Positions 1-20,006 of a stretch of 64,000 bases of DNA are shown here, piece by piece. The notes below the pieces were generated by a model. It was not told where the DNA came from and made no database searches. It saw nothing but the letters and a program-made list of their open reading frames with translations. The DNA comes from Candidatus Latescibacterota bacterium. Its GTDB lineage: Bacteria > Latescibacterota > UBA2968 > GCA-2709665. Every line of letters begins with the position of its first letter. Position 1 is the stretch's first letter. The stretch is from contig OZ220733.1 of NCBI GenBank assembly GCA_965116875.1, positions 3,008,001 through 3,072,000 of the forward strand, read 5' to 3'. A program made the position numbers and the translations under genes.

Positions 1-3000
1 TCGGGAATGACGGAGGCCGGGGAGAACTCGGCGACACAGCGTGGGAACAGCCGGCGCTGTACGCGCTGGAATGCGCGCTGACCGCGCTCTGGTCGAGCGT
101 CGGTGTCCGTCCGGACGTGGTCCTGGGACACAGTATCGGGGAACTTGCGGCGTCGCAGGCGGGAGGGGTATTCAGCCTGGAAGACGGGATGCGGTTCGCC
201 GCCGTACGCGGCACGCTGATGTCGACGATGGACGAGGGAAGCATGGCCGCGGTGTTTGCGCCCGCCAATCGCGTCGAGGAGGTTGTGAACGCGACCTCCG
301 CGGATGCCGGGCTGAGCATCTCGGGATACAACGGTACCCACCAGGTTGTCAGTGGTCCTGCAGCGGGTATTGAGGCGATCTCGAATCGATTCGCCGCGGA
401 CGGCGTCAGGGTCAGGCGGCTGAACACGAAAAAGGCGTTCCACAGCGGCCTGGTAGAGCCCATTCTGGACGAATTGGAAACCTTCGTCAGCGGCCTCGAG
501 ATTCAGTCTCCCTCCCTTACCGTCGTCAGCAATCTGACGGGTGCGGCCGTCCGTCTCGATCAGGCTCAGGACGGTGCATACTGGAGGCGGCATGCCCGGG
601 AGCCCGTGGCGTTTGCCCAGGGTGTGAAGACACTGGCGGATCTGGGCGTGGACGCGGTACTGGAGATCGGTCCGCGATCGGTACTTGCCCCGATGGCGGC
701 CGCGTCCTGGCCGGAATCGTCCGGGTCGCCGGCGCCGCTGGTGCTGTCGAGCCTCCGCCCGCCGTCGAACGACGGAGAGAAACCCGGAAATTCGGACGGT
801 TTCGTGGGGGCAGCGGCTGAGGCCTATGAAGCGGGACTCCCGATTCATTTTGCCGGGCTCTTCGCGGGAGAGACGCGGCGCCGGATTTCTGTGCCCAGCT
901 ATCCGTTTCAGCGCCGGCGACACTGGATCCAGCCGCCGAGACGACGCGCCGGCGTCGCCGGTCACCCGCTGCTTGGCGACCGGCACGAATCCGCTCGCGG
1001 AGAGGTCACGTTCGAGACCGAAGTGTTTCCCTCGGATCCGGCCTGGCTGAACGACCACAAGGTTTTTGGCCGGATCGTCGCGCCCGGCGCGCTCTACGGC
1101 GCGATGGCCTGTGCCGCGTCCCGCCTCGAGGAAGGCGGACCCGTGGCCGTTGAGAATTTCCAGTTGCACAATGCCCTGGTTTTGGAAGAGGACGAAGACG
1201 GGACGGGTGACGCGGGCCGGAGGATGCAGGTCATGCTCGAAACCGGCGAACCGGGATCGCCGCGCGGTGTCCGGATCTTCAGCAGAGGAGGCGAAGGAGA
1301 CTGGACCGTCCACGTGGAAGGCGTGCTTGCTGCGGGGGCTCCGGGCCCCGAACCGGGCGGGCGAATCGATCCTGAAAGCCTGAAGTCCGTGCTTTCGCCA
1401 CTGGACGTGGCGGACTACTACCGCCACAGGGCGAGTACCGGCGTCGACCTCGGCCCGTTCTTCCGCACGCTTGGCAGGGCCTGGTCGCGTCCCGGTGAGG
1501 CGCTGGGCGAGGTGTCTCTTCCCGAGGCGCTTTCCGGGCATGGGCTGGATGTCCATCCGCTCGTGCTGGACGGCTGTTTTCAGGTTGTGGGTGCGGCGCG
1601 CAACCCGGAAGGCAGGGAAGGCGGCGCAACGTATCTGCCGTTTGCCTGGGAGCGGCTCTGGCTGGCGGGACCGCTGCCGGACCGGGTCCTCTGTCACGTG
1701 CGGCTCAGCGAAGCATCCAGCGAGGCGGAAGCCGGGCCGGGCGGGCCGCCCGAAGTACTCAGCGGTGAAGTCAACATCTACGACCCGAACGGGAAGCCTC
1801 TGGGCCGCCTGAGCGGTTATACCGTGAAACGCGCGACGCCGGAAGCGCTGCTCGCCGCGGTGGAAGGCGTCAAGGATCTCCTGTACGAGGTGGTCTGGCG
1901 CGAACGCGACCTTCCTTCCCGAATCACGTCCGCGGGCTTCTTCCCGGATCCGGCGGACGTCGCGGCCGGCACACAGGCGTTCACCGGCTATCTCAGGGAC
2001 GCGGGAGTCGATCCCGACGACCGGGACGCCCTGCTCTCAGACCTGGAAAGCTGGTCCCGGTCCCGCGCGCTCGCGACGCTGGAGGAACTTGGCTGGCAAC
2101 GGCAGGCGGGAGAAACCGTCGACCCCGAGGTGTTGCGGGACGAATTGAACGTCCTCCCGGAGCACAAGCGCCTCTTTCGGCGGCTGTTTGAGATGCTCGC
2201 CAGGTCGGGGGTCGTGACGGAAGCGGGCGACGGATTCACCGTGGTCCTGGGGCCTGGTGATCCGCTTCCCGAAGGCCTGTCCGCCAACCTCGAGGAGGTT
2301 GCCTCGCGCATGGTCGACCGGCACCCCGACGGCCTGATCGAGATCGGCCTGTTCCGGCGTTCAGGCATCGCCCTGGCGGAGGTGCTTCGCGGTCGTGAAG
2401 ATCCGCTCACGCTCCTGTTCAGCAGCGGCGAACCGACTGCGGCCGATCTGTATCTGAAAGCGCCGGTCGCGCGCGCGGCGAACCGTATGCTGGCGGATGC
2501 GGTCAAAGCGCTCGTGGCTACGCTGCCCGAAGGCCGGCGCCTGAGGGTCATCGAGGTCGGCGCAGGAACCGGATCGGCGACCGCTTCCGTACTTCCTGAG
2601 CTTCCCGACGGGCAGTTCGACTACATGTATACGGATATCTCCGCGGGTTTCTTTTCCGAGGCGGAAGCGCGGTTCGGCGACGGCGGCGGATGCATCGAGT
2701 ACCGTCCGCTGGATATCGAAAAAGACCCGGCCGAGCAGGGTTTCGACGCCCACGGATACGACCTGCTGATCGCATCCAACGTGCTGCACGCGACGCGGTA
2801 CCTGACCGAGACGCTGGGCCATTGCCGGGACCTTCTCGCGCCGTCAGGGCATCTGATCGCACTCGAAAACCTGAGTGGGCTGGGATGGATGGACCTGACC
2901 TTCGGCCAGTTGGACGGCTGGTGGCGGTTCGCCGACGACTACCGCCCACACCACGCCCTCGCCGGTCCCCCCGTCTGGCGTTTCGCTCTGGGCGGCGCGG

Positions 3001-6000
3001 GATTCGAAGGCGTGGAAGTCCTGGGGGTGGATGAGTCCGACACGTCCCGGACATTGGACAAGGGTGTCATCGTGGCGCAGGGTCCGGCGAAAGTAGCCGA
3101 GGCGCCCGGCGTCTGGGTTCTGGCCGGGGATCGGGCAGGCTCCGCGTCGAAACTTGCAGCCGAATTGGCCGCACGGGACCAGACAGTCGTGCTTGCCGGC
3201 AGCGGAACGCAGGACGACAGCGGTCCTGTGGGCGACGGCCCGGGGGTATTAAACGCTTCCGTGGAAACCGACCGGCGCGAGTCCTGGTGTGCGATTCTGG
3301 CAGGTCTGCCGGACGAAGTGCCGCTGCGCGGCGTTGTGCACCTCGCGGGACTGGACGGTCACGGGCCACAGGCCACGACGCAGGAAATGGCGGAAGACGT
3401 GAGAGGGGCGGGAGCGAGCGCGCTCGCGCTCGTGCAGGGCGTCGCCGACGCCGATGTCATCCCCGAAAACGGATTCTGGCTGATCACCCGGGGCGCCCAG
3501 ATACTGGAACGTGAGCGGGGCGGTGAACTCGTTGGCGCAACGCTGTGGGGCTTCGGCAAGGCCGTGGCTCGTGAAGCGGCGCATCTTCAGCCGAGGATGA
3601 TCGATCTGGACCCGGTCGAGACGGCGCCCGCGCCCGACCTCGTCAACGAGCTTCTCTATCCGGACCCCGAAAATCACATCGCGTATCGGTCAGGCCGCCG
3701 TCAGGTGGCGCGCCTGGTCCGGGCGGGGACCGAAGGGGAGCGGCTGTCGCTCCCAGAGGAGTCGGATTGGGTGCTGGCGCCGGACCCGACGGGCGTGTTC
3801 GACCGGCCGCAGGTCCTCCCCCTGCCCGTAGGGTCTCTCGAACCGTGGGAGGTTCGCGTTGGGGTGGAAGCGTCCGGGCTCAACTTCTGGGACGTCTTTC
3901 GTTCGCTGGGCTTTATCGAAGAGGGCAATCTCGGCAGGGAAATGTGCGGTCACATTCTCGAGGTCGGCTCCGAAGTATCAACCGTCTCGGTGGGCGACCG
4001 CGTGGTCGGATTGGGCTTCGGCGCGTTCGCGCAGCAGATGGTTACACACGAGCAGCTGGTGGCGCCCGCGCCATCGGGATACTCCGTCTCCGGACTTGCC
4101 ACGGTGCCAAGCGCGTTCGTGTCCGCGGCATTGTCATTCGAGTTCTCCGGGCTGGAGGCCGGCGAGCGGGTTCTGATTCACGCGGGGGCGGGCGGCGTGG
4201 GGCTGGCTGCCATCCAGCTGGTGCAGGCCGCGGGAGCGGAGGTCTTCGCCACCGCGAGCGCGCCCAAGCAGGCGTATCTCCGATCGCTGGGCGTGAAACA
4301 CATTTTCGACAGCCGCACGACGAACTTCGGCCGGGAAATCCTGGAGGCCACGGACGGCGCGGGCGTGGACGTGGTGCTGAACAGCCTCACGGGAGAGGGC
4401 TTCATCGAGGCGAGCCTGTCCTGCCTCAGGCACGGCGGGCGCTTCGTGGAACTGGCCAGGCGGGACATCCTCAGCGAAGAGGAGATGGCGGCGGTCCGTC
4501 CGGACGTGCCTTACGACATCCTTGAACTGGACGTGATGAAGAAGACCGACCCCGAATGGGTGGGAAGGGTCCTACGGGACGTAATGACTCGCCTCTCGTC
4601 CGGAGAACTCAAACCGATCACCCACAGCAGGTGGCCCCTCGCCGAGGCCGGAGCCGCCCTGAGCTTCATGCGCGCCGCACGCCACCTCGGCAAGATCGTC
4701 GTAACGACGCCGCCTGTGCAGAACGGCAGGTTACGGCAGGACCGGACGTATCTCGTTACAGGCGGACTGGGCGGAATCGGATGCGCCGTCGCCGCCTGGC
4801 TGGCAGACCGCGGAGCAGGGGCCATCGTATTGAACGGACGCCGTGCGCCCGATGACGAGGCCGAGGAAGCGATCGGCAGGCTGAGGGAGGGCGGAGCGAC
4901 CGTGGAGGTGGAACTCGCGGACGTGACGGACGCCGACGCGATCGATCAGATGCTGGCCAGGATGGATGCGACGCTTCCGCCGCTCGGGGGCGTGATCCAC
5001 AGCGTGGGCGTGCTCTCCGACGGCGCGCTGACCAACCAGACCTGGGACCGATTCGAAACGGTACTCTGGCCGAAGGTACTGGGCGCCTGGCACCTGCACC
5101 GGGCAACGTTGGACCGCGATCTGGAACTGTTCGTGTTGTTCTCCAGCCGGGTCGGCGTCATGGGCAATCCGGGCCAGGCGAACCACGCGTCGGCCAATGC
5201 GTTTCTGGATCAGCTTGCCGGTCACCGCCGCGCGCTGGGACTCCCGGGTCAGGCCATCGCCTGGGGGGCGTGGTCTGAGATCGGCGAGGCGGCCGAACAG
5301 CGGGACCGCATCGACCGGCAGCGTTCGGCGCTGGGCGGGCGCTGGTTCACCCCGCAGCAGGGTCTCCGGGCATTCGACCAGCTCGTACGTCAGGACGTTA
5401 CGAATTCCGTGGTGATGTCCATGGACTGGTCCGTGTTCGAGGAAGCTGTCGAAGACCGGCCGCCATTTCTCGATGATCTGCTTTCCGCGACGACGGATGA
5501 CGAGACCGGCACGGCTGCGTCTTCGGAAGACCTGATGTCGAGGCTTCAGGGAACGCCCGCGGCGCCGGAGGAACTCCTCGTTTCCTTCCTGCAGCAGGAA
5601 GTGCAGGCGGTACTCAGGCTTCCGGCGGCGCCGGAGCCTTCGGTGGGGTTCTTCGATCTGGGCATGGATTCGCTTATGGCGGTAGAACTGCGAAACCGTC
5701 TGAATCGGGCATTCTCCGATCAGTACGTCGTGCCCAATACCGTGGTATTCGACTATCCGGACATCGCCAGTCTGGCGAGCCACCTCGCTGAAGAACTGGG
5801 CGGGGTCAGCACGGAACCGGCCACTGAGGAAGAGCCCGAGCCGGAGGTCATTCCCGTTACACAACGGGAGAAAAAGCACGACGGCATTGCGATCGTGGGT
5901 ATGGCGTGCCGGTTCCCCGGCGCACCCGATATCGATACGTTCTGGCGTCAACTCGTAGCGGGAAAGGACGCGGTGACGGACGGACGCGGAGATTCAGGCA

Positions 6001-8366
6001 CATGGGGGGGGCTTACCAAAGAGTTGCCGGCTGAGTACGCCGCGTACCGCCAGGGCGGATTCGTGGATGAGATTGACCGGTTTGACTCCAGGTTCTTTCG
6101 GATTGCGCCAATTGAAGCGCGCACGATGGATCCGCGGCAACGCATGCTTATGGAGACAAGCTGGCAGGCGCTTGAAGACGCGGGGATGAATCCGGACTTG
6201 CTCCGGGGCAGCCGCACCGGAGTCTATGCGGGCATATCCACCAGCGAATACCGGGACCTGATGACGGGAAGCGCCTACGGCGTCAGTTACCTGGGCACAG
6301 CCGCCAGCATGGCTGTCGGGCGTCTTTCTTTCGTGCTGGGACTGGAGGGACCCACCATCCCGGTGGAACTCAACTGCGCGTCGTCACTGGTTGCGGTACA
6401 TTATGCCGCCGCCGCCCTGTGGAACGAGGAAGTGGACATGGCCCTGGTTGGGGGCTCGCACGCCATTCTTTCGCCTACGCTCACGAGAGAAATGGGCGAT
6501 CTGGGGATGCTGTCGCCAAGCGGGCGGTGCAGGGCCTTCGATGCATCCGCCGACGGTTTCGTGCGAGCGGAGGGCTGTGGAATGGTCGTTCTGAAGCGAT
6601 TGAGCGAAGCGGAGGCCGACGGGGACCGCATCTGGGGCGTAATTCGTGGTTCGGCGGTCAACCAGAACGGCGCCGCCGCCGGTCCGACGGTGCCGAACGG
6701 CCCCGCGCAGGAACGGGTCATCGAGTCCGCCCTGGCGCGCGGGAACGTGGAACCTCTGGAAGTTGATTATCTCGAGGCGCACGGGTCCGGATCGGGGTTC
6801 GGCGATCCGATCGAGGTGCAGGCCGCGGCGGCGGTCTACGGCAGGGAACGCGAAGCCGAACGGCCGCTGTTGATTGGCTCCGTGAAGACGAACATCGGGC
6901 ATCTGGAGCCTGCCGCGGGGGTCGCAAGCCTCATCAAGACCGTGCTGGCGATGCATCGCGGCGTGATCCCGCGTAATCTGCACTTCCACGAACCGAATCC
7001 GAACCTGGACTGGGACCGTCTGCCCGTGCGCGTGGTGTCGGACAACACCGAATGGCCGGCCCTCGCAGATCGACCGCCGCGCGCAGGAGTGAGCGCCTTC
7101 GGCATATCGGGCACGAACGCCCACGTCGTGGTGGAAGGGTACCCGTCCGAGGACGATGCGCGCACGGATGCAGACCCCGTCCTCGCGGGCGCCCCGTGCT
7201 TTGTGGACGTATCGCTGCCGGAGCCGATGGCCGACCTGCCGCTGCCGGATAAAGAGGTGTTGCAGGCGCGGAGGACGCGTTTCCTCCCCCTTTCCGGAAA
7301 GGCGGATGGCGTGCTGATCGATCTGGCTGGGCGGTATCTGGACTGGCTCGACACCATGGCCGGGACCATCGCTTCCGATGAGGGGCCGCACGACCTGCTC
7401 GCCGACATGGCATGGACCGCGGGAACGGGGCGGAGCCATTTCGACTACAGGTCCGGCGTGGTCTTCAGTGATGCCGGGTCGTTACGGGACGGATTGAAGG
7501 CGGTGGCTGACGCTCCCGAATCGCCGGAACCGGCGGAGGCGGGGAAGGTTGCTTTCGCGTTCGGAGGGTCGGGCATCCAACAGACGGGCATGGGCAGGAC
7601 GTTGTACGAAACGGAGCCGGTCGCCCGTGCGGTCCTGGATCGTTGCGAGGAAAGTCTTGGCGAGATTCGCGGCGATTCGCTGCTGGACGTGATGTTCGAG
7701 CGCGCTGGAACGGACGGTCTCCTTGAAGATCACGCGTTGGCACGACCGGCCGTCTATGCGTTGCAATGCGCGCTCACCGCACTGTGGTCCAGTGTGGGTA
7801 TTCGACCGAACGCGGTCGCGGGTCGAGGCCCCGGAGAACTCGCGGCGGCGCAGGCGGCTGGGGTTTTCAGCCTTGAGGAAGGTCTGCGAATTGCATCGGC
7901 GTGGGGAACGGATGAACTTGTGACCGAGGTCGCTTGCGCGCCGCCTTCGCTGGACTACGTCAGCAGCGTAACGGGGCGGGTCGTTGCGCCGGACGAGTCG
8001 CTCGACGCGGAGTACTGGCGCCGCCAGGCGGATCCACCGGCGCCGTTCCGCAGATGCGTCGAGACACTGGCCGAATTGGGGAACAACGTCATCATTGCAA
8101 TCGGTCCGGACGCTCTACTGAGTACGGACCTGCGTCAGGCCTGGTCGAAGGCCGCGAACGAAGGCGAGGCGCCGGTTGTGATCGACAGCCTGCGAATACC
8201 GGGAAATGAAAGTTCGGAGGCGGATGACGGTGGAATCGTCAAGGCGGTCGCAGACGCATACGAGGCGGGGATCGCAATACGCTTCGAGGGTCTGTTCGCA
8301 GGCGAAGCCCGGCGCCGCATCGCTCTCCCGCCCTATCCCTTCCAGCGGCGGCGCCATTGGATTTAA
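1..8366 (+). CDS. supA: Type I polyketide synthase, SupA-like (5'-partial): AT-DH-cMT-ER-KR-ACP-KS-AT(inactive)
   Basis: Frame is open from nt 3 (..QPALYALECALTALWSSVGVRPDVVLGHSIGE). Motifs: AT GHSIG and KAFH; DH HKVFGRIVAP; MT VIEVGAGTG and SNVLHAT; ER LIHAGAGGVG; KR GGLGGIG; ACP GMDSL; KS ELNCASS/HGSGS/NIGHLE; terminal AT GRGPGE. The domain order plus nearby ACP and hydrolase match the sponge-symbiont sup PKS. Confidence 0.9.
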   Translation, partial: GNDGGRGELGDTAWEQPALYALECALTALWSSVGVRPDVVLGHSIGELAASQAGGVFSLEDGMRFAAVRGTLMSTMDEGSMAAVFAPANRVEEVVNATSADAGLSISGYNGTHQVVSGPAAGIEAISNRFAADGVRVRRLNTKKAFHSGLVEPILDELETFVSGLEIQSPSLTVVSNLTGAAVRLDQAQDGAYWRRHAREPVAFAQGVKTLADLGVDAVLEIGPRSVLAPMAAASWPESSGSPAPLVLSSLRPPSNDGEKPGNSDGFVGAAAEAYEAGLPIHFAGLFAGETRRRISVPSYPFQRRRHWIQPPRRRAGVAGHPLLGDRHESARGEVTFETEVFPSDPAWLNDHKVFGRIVAPGALYGAMACAASRLEEGGPVAVENFQLHNALVLEEDEDGTGDAGRRMQVMLETGEPGSPRGVRIFSRGGEGDWTVHVEGVLAAGAPGPEPGGRIDPESLKSVLSPLDVADYYRHRASTGVDLGPFFRTLGRAWSRPGEALGEVSLPEALSGHGLDVHPLVLDGCFQVVGAARNPEGREGGATYLPFAWERLWLAGPLPDRVLCHVRLSEASSEAEAGPGGPPEVLSGEVNIYDPNGKPLGRLSGYTVKRATPEALLAAVEGVKDLLYEVVWRERDLPSRITSAGFFPDPADVAAGTQAFTGYLRDAGVDPDDRDALLSDLESWSRSRALATLEELGWQRQAGETVDPEVLRDELNVLPEHKRLFRRLFEMLARSGVVTEAGDGFTVVLGPGDPLPEGLSANLEEVASRMVDRHPDGLIEIGLFRRSGIALAEVLRGREDPLTLLFSSGEPTAADLYLKAPVARAANRMLADAVKALVATLPEGRRLRVIEVGAGTGSATASVLPELPDGQFDYMYTDISAGFFSEAEARFGDGGGCIEYRPLDIEKDPAEQGFDAHGYDLLIASNVLHATRYLTETLGHCRDLLAPSGHLIALENLSGLGWMDLTFGQLDGWWRFADDYRPHHALAGPPVWRFALGGAGFEGVEVLGVDESDTSRTLDKGVIVAQGPAKVAEAPGVWVLAGDRAGSASKLAAELAARDQTVVLAGSGTQDDSGPVGDGPGVLNASVETDRRESWCAILAGLPDEVPLRGVVHLAGLDGHGPQATTQEMAEDVRGAGASALALVQGVADADVIPENGFWLITRGAQILERERGGELVGATLWGFGKAVAREAAHLQPRMIDLDPVETAPAPDLVNELLYPDPENHIAYRSGRRQVARLVRAGTEGERLSLPEESDWVLAPDPTGVFDRPQVLPLPVGSLEPWEVRVGVEASGLNFWDVFRSLGFIEEGNLGREMCGHILEVGSEVSTVSVGDRVVGLGFGAFAQQMVTHEQLVAPAPSGYSVSGLATVPSAFVSAALSFEFSGLEAGERVLIHAGAGGVGLAAIQLVQAAGAEVFATASAPKQAYLRSLGVKHIFDSRTTNFGREILEATDGAGVDVVLNSLTGEGFIEASLSCLRHGGRFVELARRDILSEEEMAAVRPDVPYDILELDVMKKTDPEWVGRVLRDVMTRLSSGELKPITHSRWPLAEAGAALSFMRAARHLGKIVVTTPPVQNGRLRQDRTYLVTGGLGGIGCAVAAWLADRGAGAIVLNGRRAPDDEAEEAIGRLREGGATVEVELADVTDADAIDQMLARMDATLPPLGGVIHSVGVLSDGALTNQTWDRFETVLWPKVLGAWHLHRATLDRDLELFVLFSSRVGVMGNPGQANHASANAFLDQLAGHRRALGLPGQAIAWGAWSEIGEAAEQRDRIDRQRSALGGRWFTPQQGLRAFDQLVRQDVTNSVVMSMDWSVFEEAVEDRPPFLDDLLSATTDDETGTAASSEDLMSRLQGTPAAPEELLVSFLQQEVQAVLRLPAAPEPSVGFFDLGMDSLMAVELRNRLNRAFSDQYVVPNTVVFDYPDIASLASHLAEELGGVSTEPATEEEPEPEVIPVTQREKKHDGIAIVGMACRFPGAPDIDTFWRQLVAGKDAVTDGRGDSGTWGGLTKELPAEYAAYRQGGFVDEIDRFDSRFFRIAPIEARTMDPRQRMLMETSWQALEDAGMNPDLLRGSRTGVYAGISTSEYRDLMTGSAYGVSYLGTAASMAVGRLSFVLGLEGPTIPVELNCASSLVAVHYAAAALWNEEVDMALVGGSHAILSPTLTREMGDLGMLSPSGRCRAFDASADGFVRAEGCGMVVLKRLSEAEADGDRIWGVIRGSAVNQNGAAAGPTVPNGPAQERVIESALARGNVEPLEVDYLEAHGSGSGFGDPIEVQAAAAVYGREREAERPLLIGSVKTNIGHLEPAAGVASLIKTVLAMHRGVIPRNLHFHEPNPNLDWDRLPVRVVSDNTEWPALADRPPRAGVSAFGISGTNAHVVVEGYPSEDDARTDADPVLAGAPCFVDVSLPEPMADLPLPDKEVLQARRTRFLPLSGKADGVLIDLAGRYLDWLDTMAGTIASDEGPHDLLADMAWTAGTGRSHFDYRSGVVFSDAGSLRDGLKAVADAPESPEPAEAGKVAFAFGGSGIQQTGMGRTLYETEPVARAVLDRCEESLGEIRGDSLLDVMFERAGTDGLLEDHALARPAVYALQCALTALWSSVGIRPNAVAGRGPGELAAAQAAGVFSLEEGLRIASAWGTDELVTEVACAPPSLDYVSSVTGRVVAPDESLDAEYWRRQADPPAPFRRCVETLAELGNNVIIAIGPDALLSTDLRQAWSKAANEGEAPVVIDSLRIPGNESSEADDGGIVKAVADAYEAGIAIRFEGLFAGEARRRIALPPYPFQRRRHWI

Positions 8367-8426
8367 CGATGGGGTCGACAGCACCGGGACGTCCGGAACA
8401 TCGGTCCGGCTGCGTGGCGAAAGGAC

Positions 8427-10103: not shown

Positions 10104-10132
10104 TTGACTTCACATTTGTTGATCGCTATCTT
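10104..10132 (+). promoter_or_regulatory. Putative sigma70 promoter for the ACP-hydrolase genes
   Basis: TTGACT-N17-TATCTT ending 45 nt before the ACP start. Confidence 0.6.
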
Positions 10133-10176
10133 ATCCGTCCGTTCAAACCACCTATCCAAATGAAAGGACCGTAGCT

Positions 10177-10416
10177 ATGGCTTCAACGGAAGATCGTCTC
10201 AGAAGTCTCATCTCGGAGAATCTCGAAGTCGACGGAAAGCCGATCGCGTTGCCTGATGATCTGAACATCAGCCTGATGGAGGCCGGTATTTCCTCCGTGG
10301 ACCTGGTGGCGTTCGCAAAATTGGTCGCACAGGAATTCGAGGTCAAGTTTACGCTTGAAGATTGTGGTGAGGTCAAGAGCGTACGGGACCTTGTCAATCG
10401 TCTCGATGAAGGCTGA
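10177..10416 (+). CDS. supB: Stand-alone acyl carrier protein, SupB-like
   Basis: 79-aa acidic helical protein with phosphopantetheine site variant GISSVD followed by QEFEVKF; RBS AAAGGA; close to the PKS. Confidence 0.8.
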   Translation: MASTEDRLRSLISENLEVDGKPIALPDDLNISLMEAGISSVDLVAFAKLVAQEFEVKFTLEDCGEVKSVRDLVNRLDEG

Positions 10417-10574
10417 GATGCATTCCAGTCTGAGTGCGTTCACTGCTTGAAGAATGGCCCCGGATTCCGATCCGGGGCCAAATTGGATTTGCGGCGATTC
10501 GGCAATGATCTCTTCATTCCATCCCGGATCGTGTTGTTGAATTCTCCAACCACGGCGAGACCAGCGACTTGACC

Positions 10575-11480
10575 ATGAATTCCAAAGCCGTTTGGGACAT
10601 CCCGGAACCGCTCGCCACATTCGATGTTCCCGTGGATGACAACACCCGCATCACCCTGCGGCGCCATGGAAATCCCAGGGGTCCCCGTCTCATACTCACC
10701 CATGGCAACGGTCTCGCGATCGATCTCTATTATCCGTTCTGGTCATTGCTGCTGGACGAATTCGACCTGATTGTCTACGACCTGAGGAACCACGGTTGGA
10801 ACACGGTCAGTTCCATTCATGAGCATAGTGTTCCCACGTTCGTGAATGACCACGACCGTATTCTCGAAGCGATCGACCGGCACTGGGGGAAGAGGCCGAA
10901 AATAGGCGTATTCCACTCGGTTTCGTCCCTGACCACGCTGCTTTCGCCCGTCAGAGGCGACGGATTCTCCGCGTGTGTTCTTTTCGACCCCCCTCTGTGC
11001 AAGCACGGCGCCAGTTACGAAGAATTCGATGCCGCGGCGGAGCGCGTGGCCGCGATGACGCGACGTCGCGCGAACCATTTCAATACCAGGGAGGAATTCG
11101 CGGACGTACTGCCCTATCTGCCGACGTTCCAGCGCGTCGTGCCCGGCGTCTTCGAACTTGTGGCAAGAACGACGCTTCGCAGATCCACGAACCGGCCGGG
11201 TTTTGAACTCCGGTGTCCGCGTGAATACGAAGCGCAAATCGTCGACTATGCCGCCACTTTTGCCGTGCTGGTGGACTTTCCGAAGTTTCGTTGCCCGTTA
11301 AAGGTGATCGGCGCCGATCCCACGTTGCCATTCTCATATCTTCCGACGCTCGATCTTAGCGATATCGTAACCGTCGACTACGATTTCCTCCCTGAAACAA
11401 CCCACCTCCTGCTATTGGAACAGCCCGCGGAGTGCGCCGAGGCGATGCGCGAATTCCTCGAGAGTCATTCGCTCATCTGA
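10575..11480 (+). CDS. Alpha/beta hydrolase, SupD/SupE-like
   Basis: THGNG oxyanion motif, YDLRNHG, atypical nucleophile elbow FHSVS, C-terminal His (TTHLL). Confidence 0.8.
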   Translation: MNSKAVWDIPEPLATFDVPVDDNTRITLRRHGNPRGPRLILTHGNGLAIDLYYPFWSLLLDEFDLIVYDLRNHGWNTVSSIHEHSVPTFVNDHDRILEAIDRHWGKRPKIGVFHSVSSLTTLLSPVRGDGFSACVLFDPPLCKHGASYEEFDAAAERVAAMTRRRANHFNTREEFADVLPYLPTFQRVVPGVFELVARTTLRRSTNRPGFELRCPREYEAQIVDYAATFAVLVDFPKFRCPLKVIGADPTLPFSYLPTLDLSDIVTVDYDFLPETTHLLLLEQPAECAEAMREFLESHSLI

Positions 11481-11484
11481 TTCC

Positions 11485-12090
11485 ATGGCGTCCCACTTTC
11501 GTACTTCTTTCATGCCTCGCCTGTCGTTGTTTATCATTGCCGGTATTCTTGCCTGCCCGCCTGCTTCCTCGATAGCGCAGGAACAGTCCGAAGACAGCGC
11601 GAAGGCGTGGTCAACAACGCTCAGGATGATTCGCGCCAGGTTTCCTGCCGTCGCCCAGGTCCCGACCGATTCGCTGCAGTCGTGGCTCGACAGGTCGCCG
11701 AAACAGGAAGATCTCATTCTGCTGGACGCACGGGAATCAGAGGAATATGCCGTCAGCCATCTCCGCGGCGCCCTTCCGGTGGCCTCGAAGGAAGAGGCAT
11801 TGAAAGTACTCCGTGGCGCACCCGCGAACCGTCGGATCGTCGTGTACTGTTCCGTGGGGTACCGATCGTCTGAACTCGCCGGATTCCTTATGGAGAAAGG
11901 CTACAGGAGAGTCTGCAATCTGGAAGGATCGATTTTCAGATGGGCCAACGAAGGTCGGCCTGTCTACCGGGGCCGAAAACATGTGCGGGTCGTCCACCCG
12001 TACGACGGTTACTGGGGCCGCCTGTTGAAGAAGCCTCTGCATCCGGTGGATCCGGCCCAATCGCGGGATTCACAGTCGCCTTCGCAATAG
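11485..12090 (+). CDS. Rhodanese-like domain protein with N-terminal signal peptide
   Basis: LLDARESEEYAVSHL, VVYCSVGYRS active loop, NLEGSIFRW; hydrophobic N-terminus. Confidence 0.85.
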   Translation: MASHFRTSFMPRLSLFIIAGILACPPASSIAQEQSEDSAKAWSTTLRMIRARFPAVAQVPTDSLQSWLDRSPKQEDLILLDARESEEYAVSHLRGALPVASKEEALKVLRGAPANRRIVVYCSVGYRSSELAGFLMEKGYRRVCNLEGSIFRWANEGRPVYRGRKHVRVVHPYDGYWGRLLKKPLHPVDPAQSRDSQSPSQ

Positions 12091-12111
12091 CAGTCCGACC
12101 CGGAGTTCAGA

Positions 12112-12795
12112 GTGAAACTGATCGTTACGAACGACGACGGGATTGACGCCGAGGGGTTGAAAACACTGGTTCGCCTGGCAGCGCGGTGGGGCGACGTCGT
12201 CGTTGCGGCGCCTGCAGAGCCTCAGTCCGGGGTCGGACACAGGTTGACGACCGACCGTCCGATTCGTGTGGATCGAATGTCGCAATCTCGTTACCGGATA
12301 TGGGGTTCGCCTGCGGACTGCACGCGTCTGGCCCTGAGCCGGTTGGCGCCCGATGGCGACTGGTTGCTCTCCGGGATCAATAACGGAAGCAATCTCGGGG
12401 TGGACGTCTACGATTCCGGGACCGTGGCAGCGGCCCGAGAGGCGGCCATTCTTGGATATAAGGCCGTCGCCCTGTCACACTATCGGGAGAAGGACCGGAC
12501 CATCGACTGGCGTCTTGCCGAAAAACGGCTTGAGCCGCTTCTGAAAAGAATACTGAGGGAAGCGCTGGAACCGGGGTGTTTTCTCAGCGTGAATCTGCCG
12601 CATCCTCAACACGAAAGGGACCGTCTCGAAACAAGAACGACACACGTGGACACCAGTCCCAACCTGATTACGTTCGCGCGAACGGGGGACGAATTTCTGT
12701 ACACAGGTATCTATCAGGACCGCCCGCGAAAACCCCGTAGCGATATTGACACCTGTTTCAACGGCCATATTTCGATCTCGAAAATCCGCGTTTGA
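12112..12795 (+). CDS. surE: 5'/3'-nucleotidase SurE
   Basis: TNDDG, GSPADC, SGINNGSNLG and SGTV motifs. Confidence 0.92.
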   Translation: MKLIVTNDDGIDAEGLKTLVRLAARWGDVVVAAPAEPQSGVGHRLTTDRPIRVDRMSQSRYRIWGSPADCTRLALSRLAPDGDWLLSGINNGSNLGVDVYDSGTVAAAREAAILGYKAVALSHYREKDRTIDWRLAEKRLEPLLKRILREALEPGCFLSVNLPHPQHERDRLETRTTHVDTSPNLITFARTGDEFLYTGIYQDRPRKPRSDIDTCFNGHISISKIRV

Positions 12796-12989
12796 GCGAA
12801 TCGTGCCGTTATCACTGTGCTGCCCGGAAACGACCCTGAGCACGCAAAGGCGGGCGTCCATCAATCGCGTTTCGCTTCGTTCTCTATAATGAGTCAGTCA
12901 AAACGTGGACATTGAGCTTGATGCGAGCCAGGTGCAATGGTGACCGAAATTCAGCGATCTCATTCCGCGATAGAACCCAAGGAGGCCCT

Positions 12990-13844
12990 ATGCCATCGCT
13001 CTCAAACACCAGCAAGGGAGTCGACAATCCCTGGTACCCGGAAGGCGGTCCGGGACGCCACCTCAAAGCCCGTCTGAAAAAGGGCGAGGTGTTGATCGGC
13101 GCGACGATCGAGGCGTACGCCCATCCTTCGCTCGTTAAGATGTTCCAACATGCCGGCTTCGACTTCGTATACATCGAGTACGAGCACAGCCTCTTCGACC
13201 TGCAGGACCTGGCCGACACCATTCTCTCCGCCCGAGACAACGGCTTGCCGGTCATCGCCAAGACCCCCCAACTCGAACGGCAAGAGGTCGCGAAGCTGCT
13301 GGAGGCGGGCGTGGTGGGAATCCAGCTTCCCCGTACGGAAACCCGGGAGCAGGTCGAGCGCCTGCTCAGCTACCTGAAATTTCCCCCCGCGGGGACCCGC
13401 GCCGTGGCGCCGGGGTGGGGCAACAGCGACTACAGGGAGGTTACGGACTGGCGGGGCTGGATGGACGAACAGGACCGGGAGACCACGCTCGTGGTCCATC
13501 TGGAGACGGTCAGGGGATATCGAAACGCAGAGGAGATTCTGAGTCACCCCGGCGTGGACATGTGCTTCGTTGGACCGGGAGACACCTCCATCGAGTTCGG
13601 ACATCCCGGCGACTTCGATCACCCTGAGGTGCGCCGCCCGATGGAAGATGCCCTGAAACTATGCAGGAAACACGGCGTGGCCTTCGGCACCATGCCCTGG
13701 AGCGCCGCCGCCGCGGGGGAGTGGGCGCGAAGGGGCGCCACGTTCTACGAAGCCACTTCGGAATTGGGATTCATCCGGGAGGGAGCCGCCGCCCTGGTGG
13801 AGGAATACCGGACTCAACTGGCGTCCTGTCCCGGGAATGCCTGA
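12990..13844 (+). CDS. HpcH/HpaI aldolase family protein
   Basis: GFDFVYIEYEH, HLETVRG, GVDMCFVGPGD; RBS AAGGAGG before ATG 12990. Confidence 0.88.
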   Translation: MPSLSNTSKGVDNPWYPEGGPGRHLKARLKKGEVLIGATIEAYAHPSLVKMFQHAGFDFVYIEYEHSLFDLQDLADTILSARDNGLPVIAKTPQLERQEVAKLLEAGVVGIQLPRTETREQVERLLSYLKFPPAGTRAVAPGWGNSDYREVTDWRGWMDEQDRETTLVVHLETVRGYRNAEEILSHPGVDMCFVGPGDTSIEFGHPGDFDHPEVRRPMEDALKLCRKHGVAFGTMPWSAAAAGEWARRGATFYEATSELGFIREGAAALVEEYRTQLASCPGNA

Positions 13845-13868
13845 TCATTCGGCCGCGGATCCACCGTG

Positions 13869-15611
13869 TCAGGAACCTGCCTGCGGGGACACTCTCACGG
13901 TAACGATGTCCATGCCGTGGTACTTCTGGTGCCGGACCGAAGAAGCGTAATGTCGCAGAATTCGAAACGATATCTCGCTCTCGTCCGGGGTCTCCGCCTG
14001 TTCGTCGAGATAGGCGAGACGGTCTTCCAGGTTTTCTTCGTCGAATACCGCGACGAATTCCAGTTCCACCGTCTCCCCTTCTTTGCGGGCAACGACGATC
14101 AGGCGCGGCACGTCGTCCGGAGAGCGTTTGTTGGCCGGCTCCAGCAGGCTCGCAAGCGTCTCCTCGCCCGCGGAGCGCAACCGCCCGGTCGCTTCCGCGT
14201 CCCAGCCCAACCCCTCCGCAACCTCCGTAAGAAACGCGTCGATACGCGGAAGTTCTGAATTGTCCAGCCGCGTCTCCAGGCGTCGGCGGCGCGGACTCGT
14301 CATTTCAAGGAAAACTGTGAGTCCGATGGCCGTCGCCGTACCGATGGTCATCCCGTTGCCGAGCAATGCGCCCCAGGGACTTCCCAGGATATCCTCCAGG
14401 ATATTCTGGTGTTGCATACCGAGGCCGATGGAGAACGCCAGCCCAGCCACGATCGCATGTTGCAGGTCGAGGCCGGCCCGCGACAGCGTCTGTATTCCCT
14501 CAACGAAAAACATGCCGAGTGCGAACAGAAGAAAGCCGCCCATGACCGGACCGGGAATGGTGAGCAGGACACCCGTTACCTTGGGAAAGAAGGCCAGAAT
14601 CACCAGAAGGCCGCCCATGGAATAGCCAACGGTGCGGGCGGACACGCCCGTGAGATTGATGAGCGACGTCGTAAACGACGAATAGGTGCTCGTGGGCGGC
14701 GTGCCGGCAATGCCGGACATCAGAATGCCCGCGCCGTTGGCATAGAGCGAGCCTTGAATCAATCGGAAATCGGTCGCGCGAGGCCTGCTCCGCGCCACCC
14801 GTTGCGCCACCACCCCGTCGCTGATGCCCTTGATGGCCTGTACCAGGGTCACAATGAGAAACATGGGCAGCAGCGCCCAGAAGCCGGTGCTTGGAGTCAG
14901 GTCCACATGCGGAAAACCGCCATAGGGAATTCCCACCCAAGATGTACCGCTCAATCGCGCGAAATCGAATAGCCCGAACGGCGCGGCGGCCGCACAGCCC
15001 GCGGCGATTCCTCCCAGTAGAGACCACATTCGCAATGACGGGGGAGCGCGCAATATCAGCATCGTTGAAACAACCAGCGTCACCGCCGCAACACAGGGAC
15101 CCGCCGCTCCGGGTGCGGTTTCAGGCACGTCTTTCAACCGATCGAGGGCAAACGGTATGACCATGGCCGCGATCAGCATTTGTACGGTACCGGAGACGAC
15201 AGGCGTTATGATACGGCGCAGAAGCGGAAGCCATGCGCCCACCGCGACGTAGAATAAAGAGGAGACGACAACAAGCCCGGCCAGCATTGAGGGACCGCCC
15301 TCCTCCAGGGCAAGAATCGAGACGGCGATGAAATTCGGCGTGACACCCGTTATCAGCAGGTGGCCGCCGCCCAACCGTCCGATCCTGGCGGCCTGTAAGG
15401 CGGTGGCCGCGCCGGTAAGGATCAGTGCCGCGAACACGGCCCACGACATGAATCGTTGATCCTGGCCGGCTGCAAGAACCGAAATGGCCACGACCAGCAC
15501 AGTGGGCGTCAGCACGATCACGATACCCTGAATGCCCACCCCGATTGTCAATAGCAGGGGGCAGGCCTGGTCCGTTTCGTACCGGATTCTCTCGTCTGCG
15601 GGGACCGGCAT
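13869..15611 (-). CDS. NCS2 (xanthine/uracil permease-fold) transporter fused to a C-terminal degenerate HATPase_c_2 (RsbW-like) domain
   Basis: About 435 aa multi-TM region (RRIITPVVSG, TGVSAR, FFPK, IPGPVMGG) followed by a ~140-aa soluble tail resembling anti-sigma kinases (ELPRIDAFL..GWDAE..RLRSAGEETLASLL..FRILRHYASSVRHQ). RBS GGGAGG. Confidence 0.8.
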   Translation of the reverse strand: MPVPADERIRYETDQACPLLLTIGVGIQGIVIVLTPTVLVVAISVLAAGQDQRFMSWAVFAALILTGAATALQAARIGRLGGGHLLITGVTPNFIAVSILALEEGGPSMLAGLVVVSSLFYVAVGAWLPLLRRIITPVVSGTVQMLIAAMVIPFALDRLKDVPETAPGAAGPCVAAVTLVVSTMLILRAPPSLRMWSLLGGIAAGCAAAAPFGLFDFARLSGTSWVGIPYGGFPHVDLTPSTGFWALLPMFLIVTLVQAIKGISDGVVAQRVARSRPRATDFRLIQGSLYANGAGILMSGIAGTPPTSTYSSFTTSLINLTGVSARTVGYSMGGLLVILAFFPKVTGVLLTIPGPVMGGFLLFALGMFFVEGIQTLSRAGLDLQHAIVAGLAFSIGLGMQHQNILEDILGSPWGALLGNGMTIGTATAIGLTVFLEMTSPRRRRLETRLDNSELPRIDAFLTEVAEGLGWDAEATGRLRSAGEETLASLLEPANKRSPDDVPRLIVVARKEGETVELEFVAVFDEENLEDRLAYLDEQAETPDESEISFRILRHYASSVRHQKYHGMDIVTVRVSPQAGS

Positions 15612-15893
15612 CAGGTGCGCCTCCCGTTCAGTCTCTTGGGGAGTCGGGTGAATCTGTGGATCGGTTCTACCTCACGAAAAAGCCCTTTTAAAATCCTTTG
15701 CGGGTCGCCCGCGTGCCCACTGTCCGAATGCTCGCGCGCCGCCCGGTAATCGGAATTCTAAAAAGGCTTCCTTGCGTTCCAGGGCCGCCTGTTTCGACCC
15801 CCCGGTCACAACATCCCGTACCCATCATCGCAAGATCGTTGTTTCAGGACTCCCTCAACCATTCCGGGACTTCCGGCAGGATGGGAACTTCCG

Positions 15894-16175
15894 CTATTCC
15901 CGCCTATCGACAACCTCGCTGAGCTTCTCATCTGCCAGACTGAACAGCCCTGCCAGGTACTGTTTGCGCAACAGGTTGAGTTCATTAACCTTCTCCCAGA
16001 GCGCCTCCTCGATCCTGGCGGCCGCTTTTTCGCGCACGTCCGAAGAGAGGGTGTTGTCATTCCTGAATTCATACTTGTCGATCGTGAATTCAGCGATGTC
16101 GGAGATGTTATCGCCGATGATTTGCATGTCGATCGCGCTCTGCATCGATCCGATTTTTTCTTCATCACTGTTCAT
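15894..16175 (-). CDS. Small acidic helical hypothetical protein (93 aa)
   Basis: Protein-like composition, GGAG RBS, co-oriented between the STAS and permease genes. Confidence 0.7.
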   Translation of the reverse strand: MNSDEEKIGSMQSAIDMQIIGDNISDIAEFTIDKYEFRNDNTLSSDVREKAAARIEEALWEKVNELNLLRKQYLAGLFSLADEKLSEVVDRRE

Positions 16176-16244
16176 CTCGCTACTCCGTTTCGGTTGGGTC
16201 GGTCTTCGGTTTCACTGGTGAATAGATATCGCGCAAGATGCAAC

Positions 16245-16592
16245 TCAATTACTTTTGAACGCCGAAATTGCATCGGCCTGTGAGTCGTAAATGTCGATAA
16301 TTTGATCGAAACCGCTGACTGAAATAACCTCACCGACCGGATCGGTGAGCTTGCAAACGCCGAATCGCTTTCCCGGATCCTTGAATTTCCAGGCGATGAT
16401 CACACCAACGCGAAGCCCCGCGCTGCTGATGAAAGTCACCTGCTCGAAATCCAGAATCAAGGCACTGTCTTCCGGGCCGATTCCAAACTCCAGCGTATCC
16501 TGAAGAACAGCGGCATTGCTGCCGTCGATGCGACCCGCGAGCACCGCGATGAGAACGCCGTCCTTCCGCTCCCATTTGATGTCCAGATCCAT
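16245..16592 (-). CDS. STAS-domain anti-sigma factor antagonist (RsbV/SpoIIAA-like)
   Basis: GRID, ILDFEQVTFISSAGLR (phospho-Ser motif), VSGF; RBS AGGAAGGA. Confidence 0.92.
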   Translation of the reverse strand: MDLDIKWERKDGVLIAVLAGRIDGSNAAVLQDTLEFGIGPEDSALILDFEQVTFISSAGLRVGVIIAWKFKDPGKRFGVCKLTDPVGEVISVSGFDQIIDIYDSQADAISAFKSN

Positions 16593-16991
16593 GACAAGCA
16601 GTCCTTCCTGCCTATTTTCAACCCGCCTAGAACGAATGGAACCGCCACGTTGCAGTACTCGGGAGGACAAATCACGTCTCTGAAGCCAATGACACGAAGA
16701 CAGTCGTTGACAACGAGGGTGGACTATATAAAAAATCTAAAGGAATTATCGCCAATCGCAACCCTGCGAAGCGTCATTTCGGGAATGGCGCCGCCGGGCA
16801 CATGGAGGGCGCGGGAGGAAGGGTCGCAGGGTACGGCATCGCAGGGCCTGTTTTCTCTAACGGACACGACGCCAGTGTCCCAATCGCTCCCGATAGTACT
16901 GAGGAAATTTCACGGGCCCCGAGCGGACCTGGAAATTCACGATCCGTTCAGGGCCGAGGTCGACCGGTTGGTAGGTTGTTCCGCCACAGGC

Positions 16992-17849
16992 TCAGGGGCT
17001 TTCAGGATCCTCGCACAATTCAGCTATCATACCCGCATTTTCTGCGAGTTGGTCGTTGAATTTCTGGTACATCCCCACCAGAAGGACGTCGTTGGCCTTG
17101 ATGTTTCTGAGGGCAAACGCGAATTCCTCCCGGATCTGGTTTCTCGAAGCGACGGCGCGTCCGGCCGCGAGGACTTTGAAGACGATACAGGGTTTGTCGG
17201 TATTCTGAATCAATCCACACATCCGGTCGCGATGTTCGCGGAGATAGATTTCACCAAGGGGCGGATGGCCGAATTTTCGTTCGAACTCCTCCCGGGCGCC
17301 TTCCAGATAATACAGGGCGGTCATGTAATAGTCGATGTCCCAATCTTCCTCTTCGGCAATATCGACGATACGGGGATTGTGTACCGACAAGCCGACCATC
17401 GCGCCGGTGTTTCGAATGCGTTTGAGGATATCCCGAAGATGTTCGAGGCGATTCTCCCTGAGACACCGCCCGGCGACACCGCTTCCGTGGGGGGCCATTC
17501 CGATGGGTTCATGCGTAGCGGCTTCGTCGATCAGCGAGGGTTCGTCGTACCAGTTTCCGCCCCCGCTGAGACAGAAGTAATGGATCGCGCCTCCCTCGCC
17601 GCGGTATCGCCGAAGATCGGCGGCAGAACGTTCGGTAAGCGTATTCTGCCAGGCGTTTACGCCGACTTCTTCCGCGCGGCGCAAGGTCGCCATCACCTGG
17701 TCGGAAGTATTGGCTTCTCTCTGATGTTCGGAGAGCAGTTGATTGAAATGGGAATAACCGTAGATCGGATTATCGCCCATGATGAGCCGGCTGATCCGAT
17801 ATCGCCCGAACGGTACGGTTGGCAGGGTGTGGGCATTTGATGAAGGCAA
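16992..17849 (-). CDS. Aldo/keto-reductase-like TIM-barrel hypothetical protein
   Basis: LPTVPFG..ISRLIMG.NP N-terminus, GLSVHNP, KPCIVFKVLAAGR; TTG start after AGAGGAGA. Confidence 0.65.
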   Translation of the reverse strand: MPSSNAHTLPTVPFGRYRISRLIMGDNPIYGYSHFNQLLSEHQREANTSDQVMATLRRAEEVGVNAWQNTLTERSAADLRRYRGEGGAIHYFCLSGGGNWYDEPSLIDEAATHEPIGMAPHGSGVAGRCLRENRLEHLRDILKRIRNTGAMVGLSVHNPRIVDIAEEEDWDIDYYMTALYYLEGAREEFERKFGHPPLGEIYLREHRDRMCGLIQNTDKPCIVFKVLAAGRAVASRNQIREEFAFALRNIKANDVLLVGMYQKFNDQLAENAGMIAELCEDPESP

Positions 17850-17969
17850 GTCGTTTCTCCTCTGTCCAGTCCGCAACGAAAGTTTCGTCTTCTTCCCGAA
17901 GTACTTGACCGTGGTGAGGCATTCCTCAATCCAACCCTGATGACGCAGCGGTTGTCTGATGGGTACCTG

Positions 17970-19037
17970 TCATTCAAACACCAGCACCGTTCGCGCCACT
18001 TTCCCCTGGAGCATGTCTTCGAACGCCTCGTTGATCTCATCCAGAGGTCGATAGCGGGAAATGAGTTCGTCCAATTTAACTTTCCCTTGCCGATACAAGT
18101 CCAGAATCCAGAGAAAATCCACGCGGGCGCGGGCGGCGCCGTGCCAGGAACCCATCACGGCGCGGTCCATTAGCAGATCCTCACCGGCAATGCACACATC
18201 CTGTCCGGTTGGCTGCACCCCCACCATAACCGCGGTACCACTGGTGCGGACCGATGCAAACGTCTGCCTGACCAGCGCCGGAAAACCCACGACCTCGAAG
18301 GCATAGTCCGCCCCTCCCCCTGTAATCTCCACGATCCGCTGAACGGGGTCCTCACTGTCCGCGTTGACGAAATGCGTGGCGCCGAACTGTTCCGCCAGTT
18401 CCAACTTGTAGGGCACCGTGTCCACCGCAATGATCTTGCCGGCCGATGCGAGCACTCCGCCCTGGATGACGTTGAGGCCCACTCCGCCGCAGCCGAACAC
18501 GGCCATTGCGGCGCCCGCCTCCACCTGCGCGCGATTCACCACGGCGCCGATCCCGGTGATGACCGCGCAACTGATCAGGCACGCTTTCCTGAGATCCGTG
18601 TCATCCGGCACCTTCACGCACGCATCCGCCGATACAATAGTCTGTTCGGTATAGGTGGGCCTGTTGTGAAAATAGACCGTCCCGTTCCTGGATATACGAT
18701 TCGCTACTCTGCCCTGGTGGGTCTCGCACAGGGCAGGGCTTCCCTGGCTGCAATTCCGGCAGTGGCCGCACATTGCATCCAGCGAGAGGATGATCTTGTC
18801 GCCGGGACGTACGCTCGTCACGCCGGGGCCGACCTCCGCGACCACCCCCGCGCCTTCGTGTCCCATGACCCAGGGAAGCCCGCGAGGCGCGACGTGACCG
18901 TCAACGTAGTGGTAGTCGCTGTGGCAGACACCGGCGCCGACGATATCCAGAAGCACTTCACCCGCCTGGGGCGATGCGATATCCACGTCTTCGACGGAGA
19001 CGCGGGTCAGCGGTCTGTGGAGGACGGCGGCTTTCAT
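17970..19037 (-). CDS. Zinc-dependent alcohol dehydrogenase (MDR family)
   Basis: GVCHSD, GHEGAG, structural Zn CGHCRNC..C, GCGGVG. Confidence 0.93.
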   Translation of the reverse strand: MKAAVLHRPLTRVSVEDVDIASPQAGEVLLDIVGAGVCHSDYHYVDGHVAPRGLPWVMGHEGAGVVAEVGPGVTSVRPGDKIILSLDAMCGHCRNCSQGSPALCETHQGRVANRISRNGTVYFHNRPTYTEQTIVSADACVKVPDDTDLRKACLISCAVITGIGAVVNRAQVEAGAAMAVFGCGGVGLNVIQGGVLASAGKIIAVDTVPYKLELAEQFGATHFVNADSEDPVQRIVEITGGGADYAFEVVGFPALVRQTFASVRTSGTAVMVGVQPTGQDVCIAGEDLLMDRAVMGSWHGAARARVDFLWILDLYRQGKVKLDELISRYRPLDEINEAFEDMLQGKVARTVLVFE

Positions 19038-19124
19038 ATCTGTCTCTTTTCGCAAATGGCGTTGGAAAACAAGGCGATATATCGGAATGACAGATGTGCT
19101 GATCTCAGGGCGATTCCGGAAGGG

Positions 19125-19703: not shown

Positions 19704-20006
19704 GGCTTGTTTCTCGTCAGAAATCCGTGCCAGGAGCCGGACACAGACCGGACAGACGCTTTCAACGGTCCGTCAGGGGACCCCTGGAGACCGTCGTCGA
19801 CGGATTCGTGATTGGCGCATCTCACTTCAATCGTACTCCGTATTGAGCGACAATATGAGCGACGTCGCAGTCTGTGTCAACGGATATTCGCCCGTTCGAG
19901 CCGTGAATCGGCGGCCGGGATTCCCGCGTTCAGGGCTGGATTGCCGCTCCCTGCCGGACCTCATAAACGCACGCTGAAATATGCGTATTGATTGTTCTGG
20001 AATGGC

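Follow-up and report, generated by a model that had tools for sequence, protein, structure and literature searches.

Why does a permease end in a domain resembling the RsbW-type kinases, and does it work with the STAS protein encoded next to it? The question is raised by a locus of Candidatus Latescibacterota bacterium, within a stretch of 64,000 nucleotides (contig OZ220733.1, positions 3,008,001 to 3,072,000), hereafter named the window. An initial annotation had read three co-oriented open reading frames (ORFs) of this locus, for a STAS protein, a small acidic protein and the permease, as a transporter-coupled partner-switching system, and the three ORFs were indeed found, on the minus strand, at the coordinates given below. 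We show here that the permease belongs to a large family which, on predicted structures, joins an NCS2-fold carrier to an RsbW-fold pseudokinase domain, and that SupE of sponge symbionts is its most likely identity. The main conserved context of the permease is a cluster of polyketide synthase (PKS), carrier protein and hydrolase genes a few kilobases away; neither this cluster nor the rebuilt substrate pocket of the permease figured in the initial annotation.

The permease and its C-terminal domain

The permease is composed of two parts, as follows.

13869..15611, minus strand: permease, 580 residues, whole ORF
14298..15611, minus strand: predicted NCS2/SLC23-fold membrane domain of the permease, residues 1-438, with Lys261 at the place of UapA Glu356, Gln-Gly in transmembrane helix 1 (TM1) and the NAT motif lost
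13869..14303, minus strand: predicted RsbW/SpoIIAB-fold pseudokinase domain, residues 437-580, with Glu484 kept and the N-box Asn, DxG and GxG lost

Relatives of the permease were collected from GTDB genomes, and the best 80 of at least 593 confirmed stretches make up the set of loci (L001-L080) to which all counts out of 80 refer. They come mostly from Chloroflexota, and also from Latescibacterota, Acidobacteriota, actinobacterial and other metagenome-assembled genomes (MAGs). This sample is skewed to near relatives, a skew that should favour the detection of a conserved operon. Related loci share neighbours through kinship, so that counts of neighbouring genes are not independent. Upstream sequence of at least 1.5 kb was present in 75 of the 80 loci. 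Residue frequencies were taken from an alignment of 114 near-full-length proteins, of which 28 were among the 150 listed representatives at 50% clustering and the other 86 came from the loci and the window, after exclusion of locus ORFs shorter than 500 residues (in L004, L009 and L050, and fragments).

The Pfam family PF00860 covers residues 24-399 of the permease (110 bits, for a cut-off of 27), and the model of the membrane domain has the same 14-helix fold as UapA (Z 42.0, root-mean-square deviation (rmsd) 2.7, 424 residues aligned), UraA (Z 40.0) and SVCT1 (Z 35), with SLC26Dg at Z 30.6. By the PF00860 match and the modelled fold, the permease is a structural member of the NCS2/NAT (SLC23) family. 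Pfam and NCBIfam both label it a xanthine/uracil permease, yet its scores fall far under the cut-offs for pbuX (171 against 414) and ncs2 (148 against 292). Gln28 and Asp265 are shared with the known carriers; most of the family retains these two, together with Asp281 and the terminal Thr-Gly of the motif. Unlike UapA, the window protein has Lys261 aligned to Glu356 in TM8, a column occupied by Lys or Arg in 85 of the 114 proteins and by Glu in 14. In TM1, Gln-Gly replaces Gln-His (UapA His86 to Gly), and the His is found in 1 of 106 homologues. In TM10 the sequence reads TYSSFTTS where UapA has TFAQNNG; Gln408-Asn409-x-Gly411 is lost, and the signature [QEP]NxG is present in none of the 114 homologues. 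In UapA, Glu356 and Gln408 are indispensable for both binding and transport (PMC3405029), and Ser-rich motifs are described as abolishing purine uptake (PMC5972032). Judged by its TM8 Glu, TM10 and TM1 positions, the permease is probably not a canonical nucleobase-transporting NAT. The exchange of the nucleobase-binding residues (Lys for Glu, with loss of the NAT motif) makes an anion or a carboxylate the probable cargo.

The C-terminal tail forms an additional cytoplasmic domain of 140 residues, also unlike UapA. Residues 437-580 (window 14303-13872) match HATPase_c_2 weakly, below the cut-off (E 0.055), and 17 of the 100 members of the tail alignment match this family at E≤0.1 (best 8.9e-6). 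The RsbW/SpoIIAB-like nature proposed for the tail was borne out at the level of the predicted fold. An AlphaFold model built from 100 homologues (pLDDT 86.8) was compared to known structures by Foldseek and VIA-align: the top Foldseek matches were UsfX, SpoIIAB and RsbW (best E 7.4e-7), and the alignments reached Z 16.0 for UsfX (rmsd 2.6, 115 residues aligned), 15.7 for RsbW and 14.6 for SpoIIAB. Rv1364c was also among the matches within this range (Z 14.6-16.0), histidine kinases did not exceed Z 7.5, and within the model of the whole permease the tail matched UsfX at Z 15.0. A sequence profile of the tail found no RsbW relative or kinase in the PDB, hhalign against one natural RsbW returned a probability of 3%, and Atlas features placed the tail in a cluster with 15% HATPase_c_2 (score 0.92). 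The assignment is therefore made on the predicted structure, the weak Pfam matches and the Atlas features, proof by sequence comparison having failed.

Three intact RsbW-like proteins encoded in the loci provided the register for the ATP-binding boxes. EETLAS falls on D-E-I-L-T-N or D-E-L-I-A-N, EFVAVF on IQDNG, and SEISF on GGLGI, which confirms the degenerate boxes (EETLAS, no DxG, SEISF) listed in the initial annotation. Over the 113 usable tails of the 114 proteins, the N-box Asn is found once, DxG in the G1 region three times, and GxG[LMIF] anywhere in the tail seven times. Glu484, the catalytic Glu of the N-box helix, is kept in 114/114, and Arg477, Arg550, Arg553 and His554 are conserved as well. 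Columns conserved at 90% or more number 28 out of 135 in the tail versus 49 out of 420 in the membrane part. As the ATP motifs are lost across the 113 tails, in a register confirmed by intact RsbW-like proteins, we regard the tail as a family-wide pseudokinase of modelled RsbW/SpoIIAB fold whose ATP boxes are dead. It shares the fold and the catalytic Glu with RsbW, SpoIIAB and UsfX, the kinases acting with RsbV, SpoIIAA and RsfB, and in the window a STAS protein with a phospho-acceptor Ser is encoded next door. Unlike these kinases, it has no N-box Asn, DxG or GxG and is fused to a transporter, and no phosphatase or sigma gene was found in its locus.

The family is large. At E≤0.001 the tail matched 2,617 proteins clustered at 90%, among 3,846 candidates, with 548 representatives at 50% clustering, and PF00860 was present in 120/120 of the tail matches listed; the fusion is thus no assembly accident. 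Among the 150 listed 50% representatives, the tail either comes after an NCS2 domain or has the look of a fragment. Short matches in this list, considered as stand-alone tail proteins, are for the most part incomplete or start within, or directly behind, the last membrane helix, and were read as probable fragments. Searches of plasmids by tblastn gave no match, either for the tail or for the 93-residue protein described below. Paralogues of the fusion, two or three within 20 kb, some of them in tandem or from different clades, occur in L036, L043, L044, L049, L059, L060 and L073. No paper on an NCS2-RsbW fusion was found in the literature searched, which did not extend to subscription papers. 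The closest parallel in design is offered by SLC26/SulP transporters (DauA/YchM, BicA, SLC26Dg), in which a 7+7 fold is followed by a C-terminal cytoplasmic regulatory domain and the cargo is an anion or carboxylate. Here, however, the fused domain has the fold of the STAS partner and not of STAS, and the membrane domain is nearer NCS2 (Z 42 versus 31). A preprint on BicA (bioRxiv 10.1101/2022.06.08.495363) describes SLC23 carriers as having the same fold, without STAS.

The sup-type polyketide synthase neighbourhood

Genes of the sup type, coding for a PKS, an acyl carrier protein (ACP), a phosphopantetheinyl transferase (PPTase) and a hydrolase, lie within 10 kb of the permease in 30/80 loci, and within 600 nt in 24/80. 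These 24 loci belong to Latescibacterota, Chloroflexota, Acidobacteriota, Thermodesulfobacteriota, Binatia and actinobacterial MAGs, and the linkage persists across several phyla and through changes of gene order. The window, too, has the PKS, the free ACP and the hydrolase:

117..8366, plus strand: sup-type PKS, AT-DH-MT-ER-KR-ACP-KS-AT visible, 5' part beyond the window, 51-78% identity to 25 PKS ORFs in related loci
10177..10416, plus strand: free ACP, presumably SupB-like
10569..11480, plus strand: alpha/beta hydrolase, presumably SupD-like, which in related loci usually abuts the permease 3' end in convergent orientation

The permease and this cluster (117-11480) are convergent in the window. 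A PPTase gene was found in 24 related loci and gave no match in the window. Between hydrolase and permease (11485-13844) lie rhodanese, SurE and HpcH-type aldolase genes, and L001 has similar genes of this region, some in another strand arrangement. Between PKS and ACP (8427-10159, minus strand) are genes for a xylose-isomerase-like TIM barrel and a PhyH dioxygenase. No Rfam family was matched in window 8000-20000.

The permease tree (FastTree, midpoint-rooted) places the window protein in a clade with support 0.976, in which sup genes accompany 26 of the 28 locus proteins and Lys261 is present in 31 of 32 members. A DUF1330 gene is found within 1 kb of the permease in 31/80 loci (for instance L021:11788-12075). 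The permeases linked to it form a second, separate clade, for which DUF1330 may be a partner. Proteins of this DUF1330-linked clade have a Pro near the position of UapA Gln408 in TM10, recalling ascorbate carriers. In another clade, position 261 is a Glu in 13 of 30 members.

The sup operon (supA to supE) is reported (Fieseler et al. 2007) to group a permease with genes for a SupA-type PKS, a free ACP, a PPTase and a hydrolase. The length of this permease is similar to that of the window protein. SupE (ABE03914) is named as a permease, and a homologue of 557 residues is listed, in Table 1 of PMC3908369. Compared with this operon, the window has three inserted genes and no PPTase gene was found in it. 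Neither an RsbW-like tail nor an altered pocket was found mentioned for SupE in the literature searched, subscription papers not being covered. The name SupE is used here on the strength of this context; a name for the permease gene has very likely existed since 2007, and a trio similar to that of the window was tabulated in 2013. According to three reports, sup is a widespread sponge-symbiont cluster in several phyla (PMC4245539, PMC9864124, PMC9426513), and two of them link it to branched fatty acids (PMC4245539, PMC9864124). PKS sequences of high-microbial-abundance sponges are dominated by sup, with mid-chain-branched fatty acids as proposed products (PMC4245539).

The STAS gene and the 93-residue protein

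Upstream of the permease, on the same strand, are the two other genes of the trio and a short conserved block:

16245..16592, minus strand: stand-alone STAS protein of the anti-anti-sigma type, 115 residues, FISSAGLR motif including Ser57, split counterpart of a STAS-small-protein fusion
15894..16175, minus strand: acidic protein of 93 residues, no Pfam family, probably POR_0546-like by comparison with PMC3908369, Table 1
15748..15768, minus strand: 21-nt block within the 282 nt that precede the permease, shared without a mismatch by the window and L001; an imperfect inverted partner lies at 15681-15697

The small protein is acidic, as had been described (21 Asp or Glu against 12 Lys or Arg, isoelectric point 4.5), and the FISSAGLR motif of the STAS protein is intact (Pfam PF01740, E 2e-13; TIGR00377, 58 bits for a cut-off of 53.45). 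The STAS and small genes are 69 nt apart, the small gene and the permease 282 nt, and no terminator-like site was found between the three genes. The 21-nt block with its inverted partner is possibly the permease's own promoter or operator. Among the 80 loci this motif was found in none other than L001. Upstream of STAS, an ORF of 294 residues (16992-17876, minus strand) has no Pfam or NCBIfam family.

To judge by the homologues collected, STAS and the 93-residue protein form one true module. Homologues of the small protein of similar length number 40, and all 44 of the longer ones carry STAS (among 7,998 scored candidates), which shows that the two genes belong together. The window STAS is 55-61% identical to the nearest fusions; Ser57 is invariant, and Gly20, Arg21 and Asp23 are kept, in 44/44 aligned sequences. 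In P0314 and P0315, STAS is fused to two tandem copies of the 93-residue domain. For the small protein itself, no family was found in Pfam or NCBIfam, the best PDB match had E 0.02, the Atlas gave no usable feature match, and a model of pTM 0.46 gave generic helical matches. Considered as a relative of the permease tail, it proved not to be related to it.

The association of this module with the permease is not conserved. Using a STAS profile made from 48 sequences and a separate profile for the small protein, we found matches in 4/80 and 1/80 loci respectively, and the trio, with STAS and small gene beside the permease, in L001 alone. In that locus the small gene and permease are intact, and the STAS ortholog (L001:8900-9261) is truncated at its 5' end by about 100 nt, with loss of the start and of about 17 codons. 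The three other STAS-positive loci (L007, L066 and L080) have STAS 5-9 kb from the permease, each with its own intact RsbW-type kinase and, in L066, SpoIIE; these STAS proteins were therefore rejected as permease partners. Such kinase-STAS sets (L007:2413-3206, L080:402-2668, L066:840-5973) are directly followed by an ammonium-transporter-like gene in L080, where it is confirmed by Pfam, and in L066, where the N-terminus is similar, and may possibly be a partner-switching module for nitrogen uptake.

Permease and small gene are probably on one contig three more times (P0007/P0129, P0010/P0149, P0012/P0148), as judged from contigs of equal size. In addition, Table 1 of PMC3908369 lists, in a row before swfA on the swf fosmid pPS11G3, a SupE-like permease (557 residues), a STAS protein (115 residues) and a POR_0546-like gene of 92 residues, with a STAS-POR_0546 fusion of 218 residues nearby. 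Like the window, this fosmid groups permease, STAS and small gene; the order is permease-STAS-small, and the genes are merely tabulated there. It would represent a second context of the trio with another gene order, homology and presence of the tail being deduced from lengths and architecture. The three genes thus come together repeatedly yet seldom, which may stem from a physical link or from a common pull to PKS loci.

A search of the window in six frames with a two-sequence profile gave no RsbW-like kinase, and no PP2C, sigma factor or kinase was found among the 48 window entries scanned with Pfam, a set short of all ORFs; the regulatory genes that the initial annotation looked to in the neighbourhood were thus not recovered from the window by these scans. 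Its idea of partner switching survives in part: the STAS protein is of the anti-anti-sigma type with an invariant Ser57, and the tail is a dead domain of predicted RsbW fold. The conserved linkage does not survive, as the pair is beside the permease in 1/80 loci, there with a 5'-deleted STAS, and co-occurrence of the fusion with STAS genes elsewhere, the refuting test set by the initial annotation itself, mostly fails. Farther along the window are a long plus-strand run of NADH dehydrogenase, Mrp/Mnh-type antiporter and F-type ATP synthase genes (19992-47721) and two successive Fic/DOC-domain genes (51872-53942).

Transport, gating or sensing

We lean, if only slightly, towards the view that the SupE carrier moves an anionic PKS substrate, with the tail as an obligatory non-catalytic domain for regulation or assembly, and STAS as an optional partner. 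The permease would be a secondary transporter of the elevator type, whose Lys- and Ser-lined pocket would carry an anion or a small carboxylate, not xanthine or uracil. Its cargo would most likely be a substrate or co-substrate of the PKS, either bicarbonate or a short acid used as starter or extender. The tail, sited where SLC26 carriers have STAS, would be needed by every member of the family, with or without a STAS gene nearby; its conservation holds in proteins nearly all of which lack a STAS gene next door. STAS and the 93-residue protein would be a separate module, also drawn to symbiont PKS loci and lying beside SupE in few lineages, and this module may optionally dock on the tail. As an analogy, the STAS domain of E. 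coli DauA/YchM was co-crystallised with ACP (PMC5703999), and this link, like MlaB (PMC7367683), shows that attachment of STAS proteins to transporters does occur. Several points weigh against this view. The substrate is deduced solely from one charge reversal and from neighbour genes, and the pocket could belong to a non-transporting sensor. No sup gene lies within 10 kb in 50/80 loci and a second clade is tied to DUF1330, so that the family as a whole cannot serve PKS supply. In the window, three unrelated genes separate permease and hydrolase and no PPTase gene was found. Finally, the name SupE is drawn from the gene context.

A tentative alternative is that STAS gates the transporter: the unphosphorylated STAS protein, tethered to or paired with the 93-residue protein, would dock on the dead RsbW domain and switch transport, until freed by a kinase whose gene lies elsewhere. 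The fold of the tail is the one bound to STAS in the RsbW, SpoIIAB and UsfX complexes, with Glu484 (114/114) and the four conserved Arg and His residues (Arg477, Arg550, Arg553, His554), the STAS protein keeps Gly20, Arg21, Asp23 and Ser57 in 44/44, and intact RsbW-type kinases exist in genomes carrying the family. The trio occurs in the window, in L001 and probably on three further contigs, and in another order on the swf fosmid (PMC3908369, Table 1). This gating is however difficult to reconcile with the 79/80 loci lacking the pair beside the permease, with the loss of the start codon and about 17 codons of STAS in L001 next to an intact permease, and with L007, whose permease is the nearest protein in the tree and has a different upstream gene. 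The 282-nt gap with its own conserved block before the permease also speaks against it, and the link could reflect the common pull toward PKS loci. A more elaborate proposal, which we hold with as much doubt, is that of an inverted SLC26. An NCS2-derived carrier of anions or carboxylates would bear the fold of the STAS partner as a dead dock, and a free module of STAS and the 93-residue protein, phosphorylated in trans or bridging to ACP, would gate substrate supply to the polyketide lipid synthases of sponge symbionts.

We consider it unlikely that the permease is a transport-dead sensor (transceptor), in which a ligand would move the elevator domain and the tail would signal by binding STAS or, in the manner of an anti-sigma factor, a sigma factor. 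Residues that NAT transport requires are missing, the pocket differs from clade to clade as the tail stays conserved, several paralogues occur per locus, and RsbW-fold proteins bind sigma factors (1l0o and 8jzt were among the structure matches). But the recurring neighbours with an annotation are enzymes, DUF1330 and binding proteins, with no sigma factor or regulator, and most of the family retains Gln28, Asp265, Asp281 and the terminal Thr-Gly of the motif, in the manner of a functional carrier. Least probable of all, in our opinion, is a conventional permease for nucleobases or ascorbate, whose tail would serve structure alone and whose neighbours would be incidental. The Pfam and NCBIfam labels and the separate clade with Glu at position 261 in 13/30 members argue for it; the deficit relative to the pbuX and ncs2 cut-offs, the Lys in place of Glu356 together with the lost NAT motif in the window protein, and the sup linkage over several phyla and gene orders argue against it.

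The permease and its locus qualify neither as a canonical NAT, nor as an active RsbW kinase, nor as a conserved partner-switching system, and resemble each of them in part. For the sup permease, so far an unexplained label, the analysis indicates that it is probably not a xanthine/uracil permease, and names Lys261, Glu484 and the Ser-rich TM10 as candidate key residues. It also defines an unnamed STAS-linked small domain and, on predicted folds, shows an architecture that did not turn up in the literature searched, made of an NCS2-fold carrier and an RsbW-fold pseudokinase and present in thousands of sequence clusters and several phyla. Should STAS indeed gate the carrier, transport itself would be a direct target of partner switching; and were the inverted SLC26 arrangement true, it would be a case of a transporter controlled directly by partner switching, without a sigma factor.

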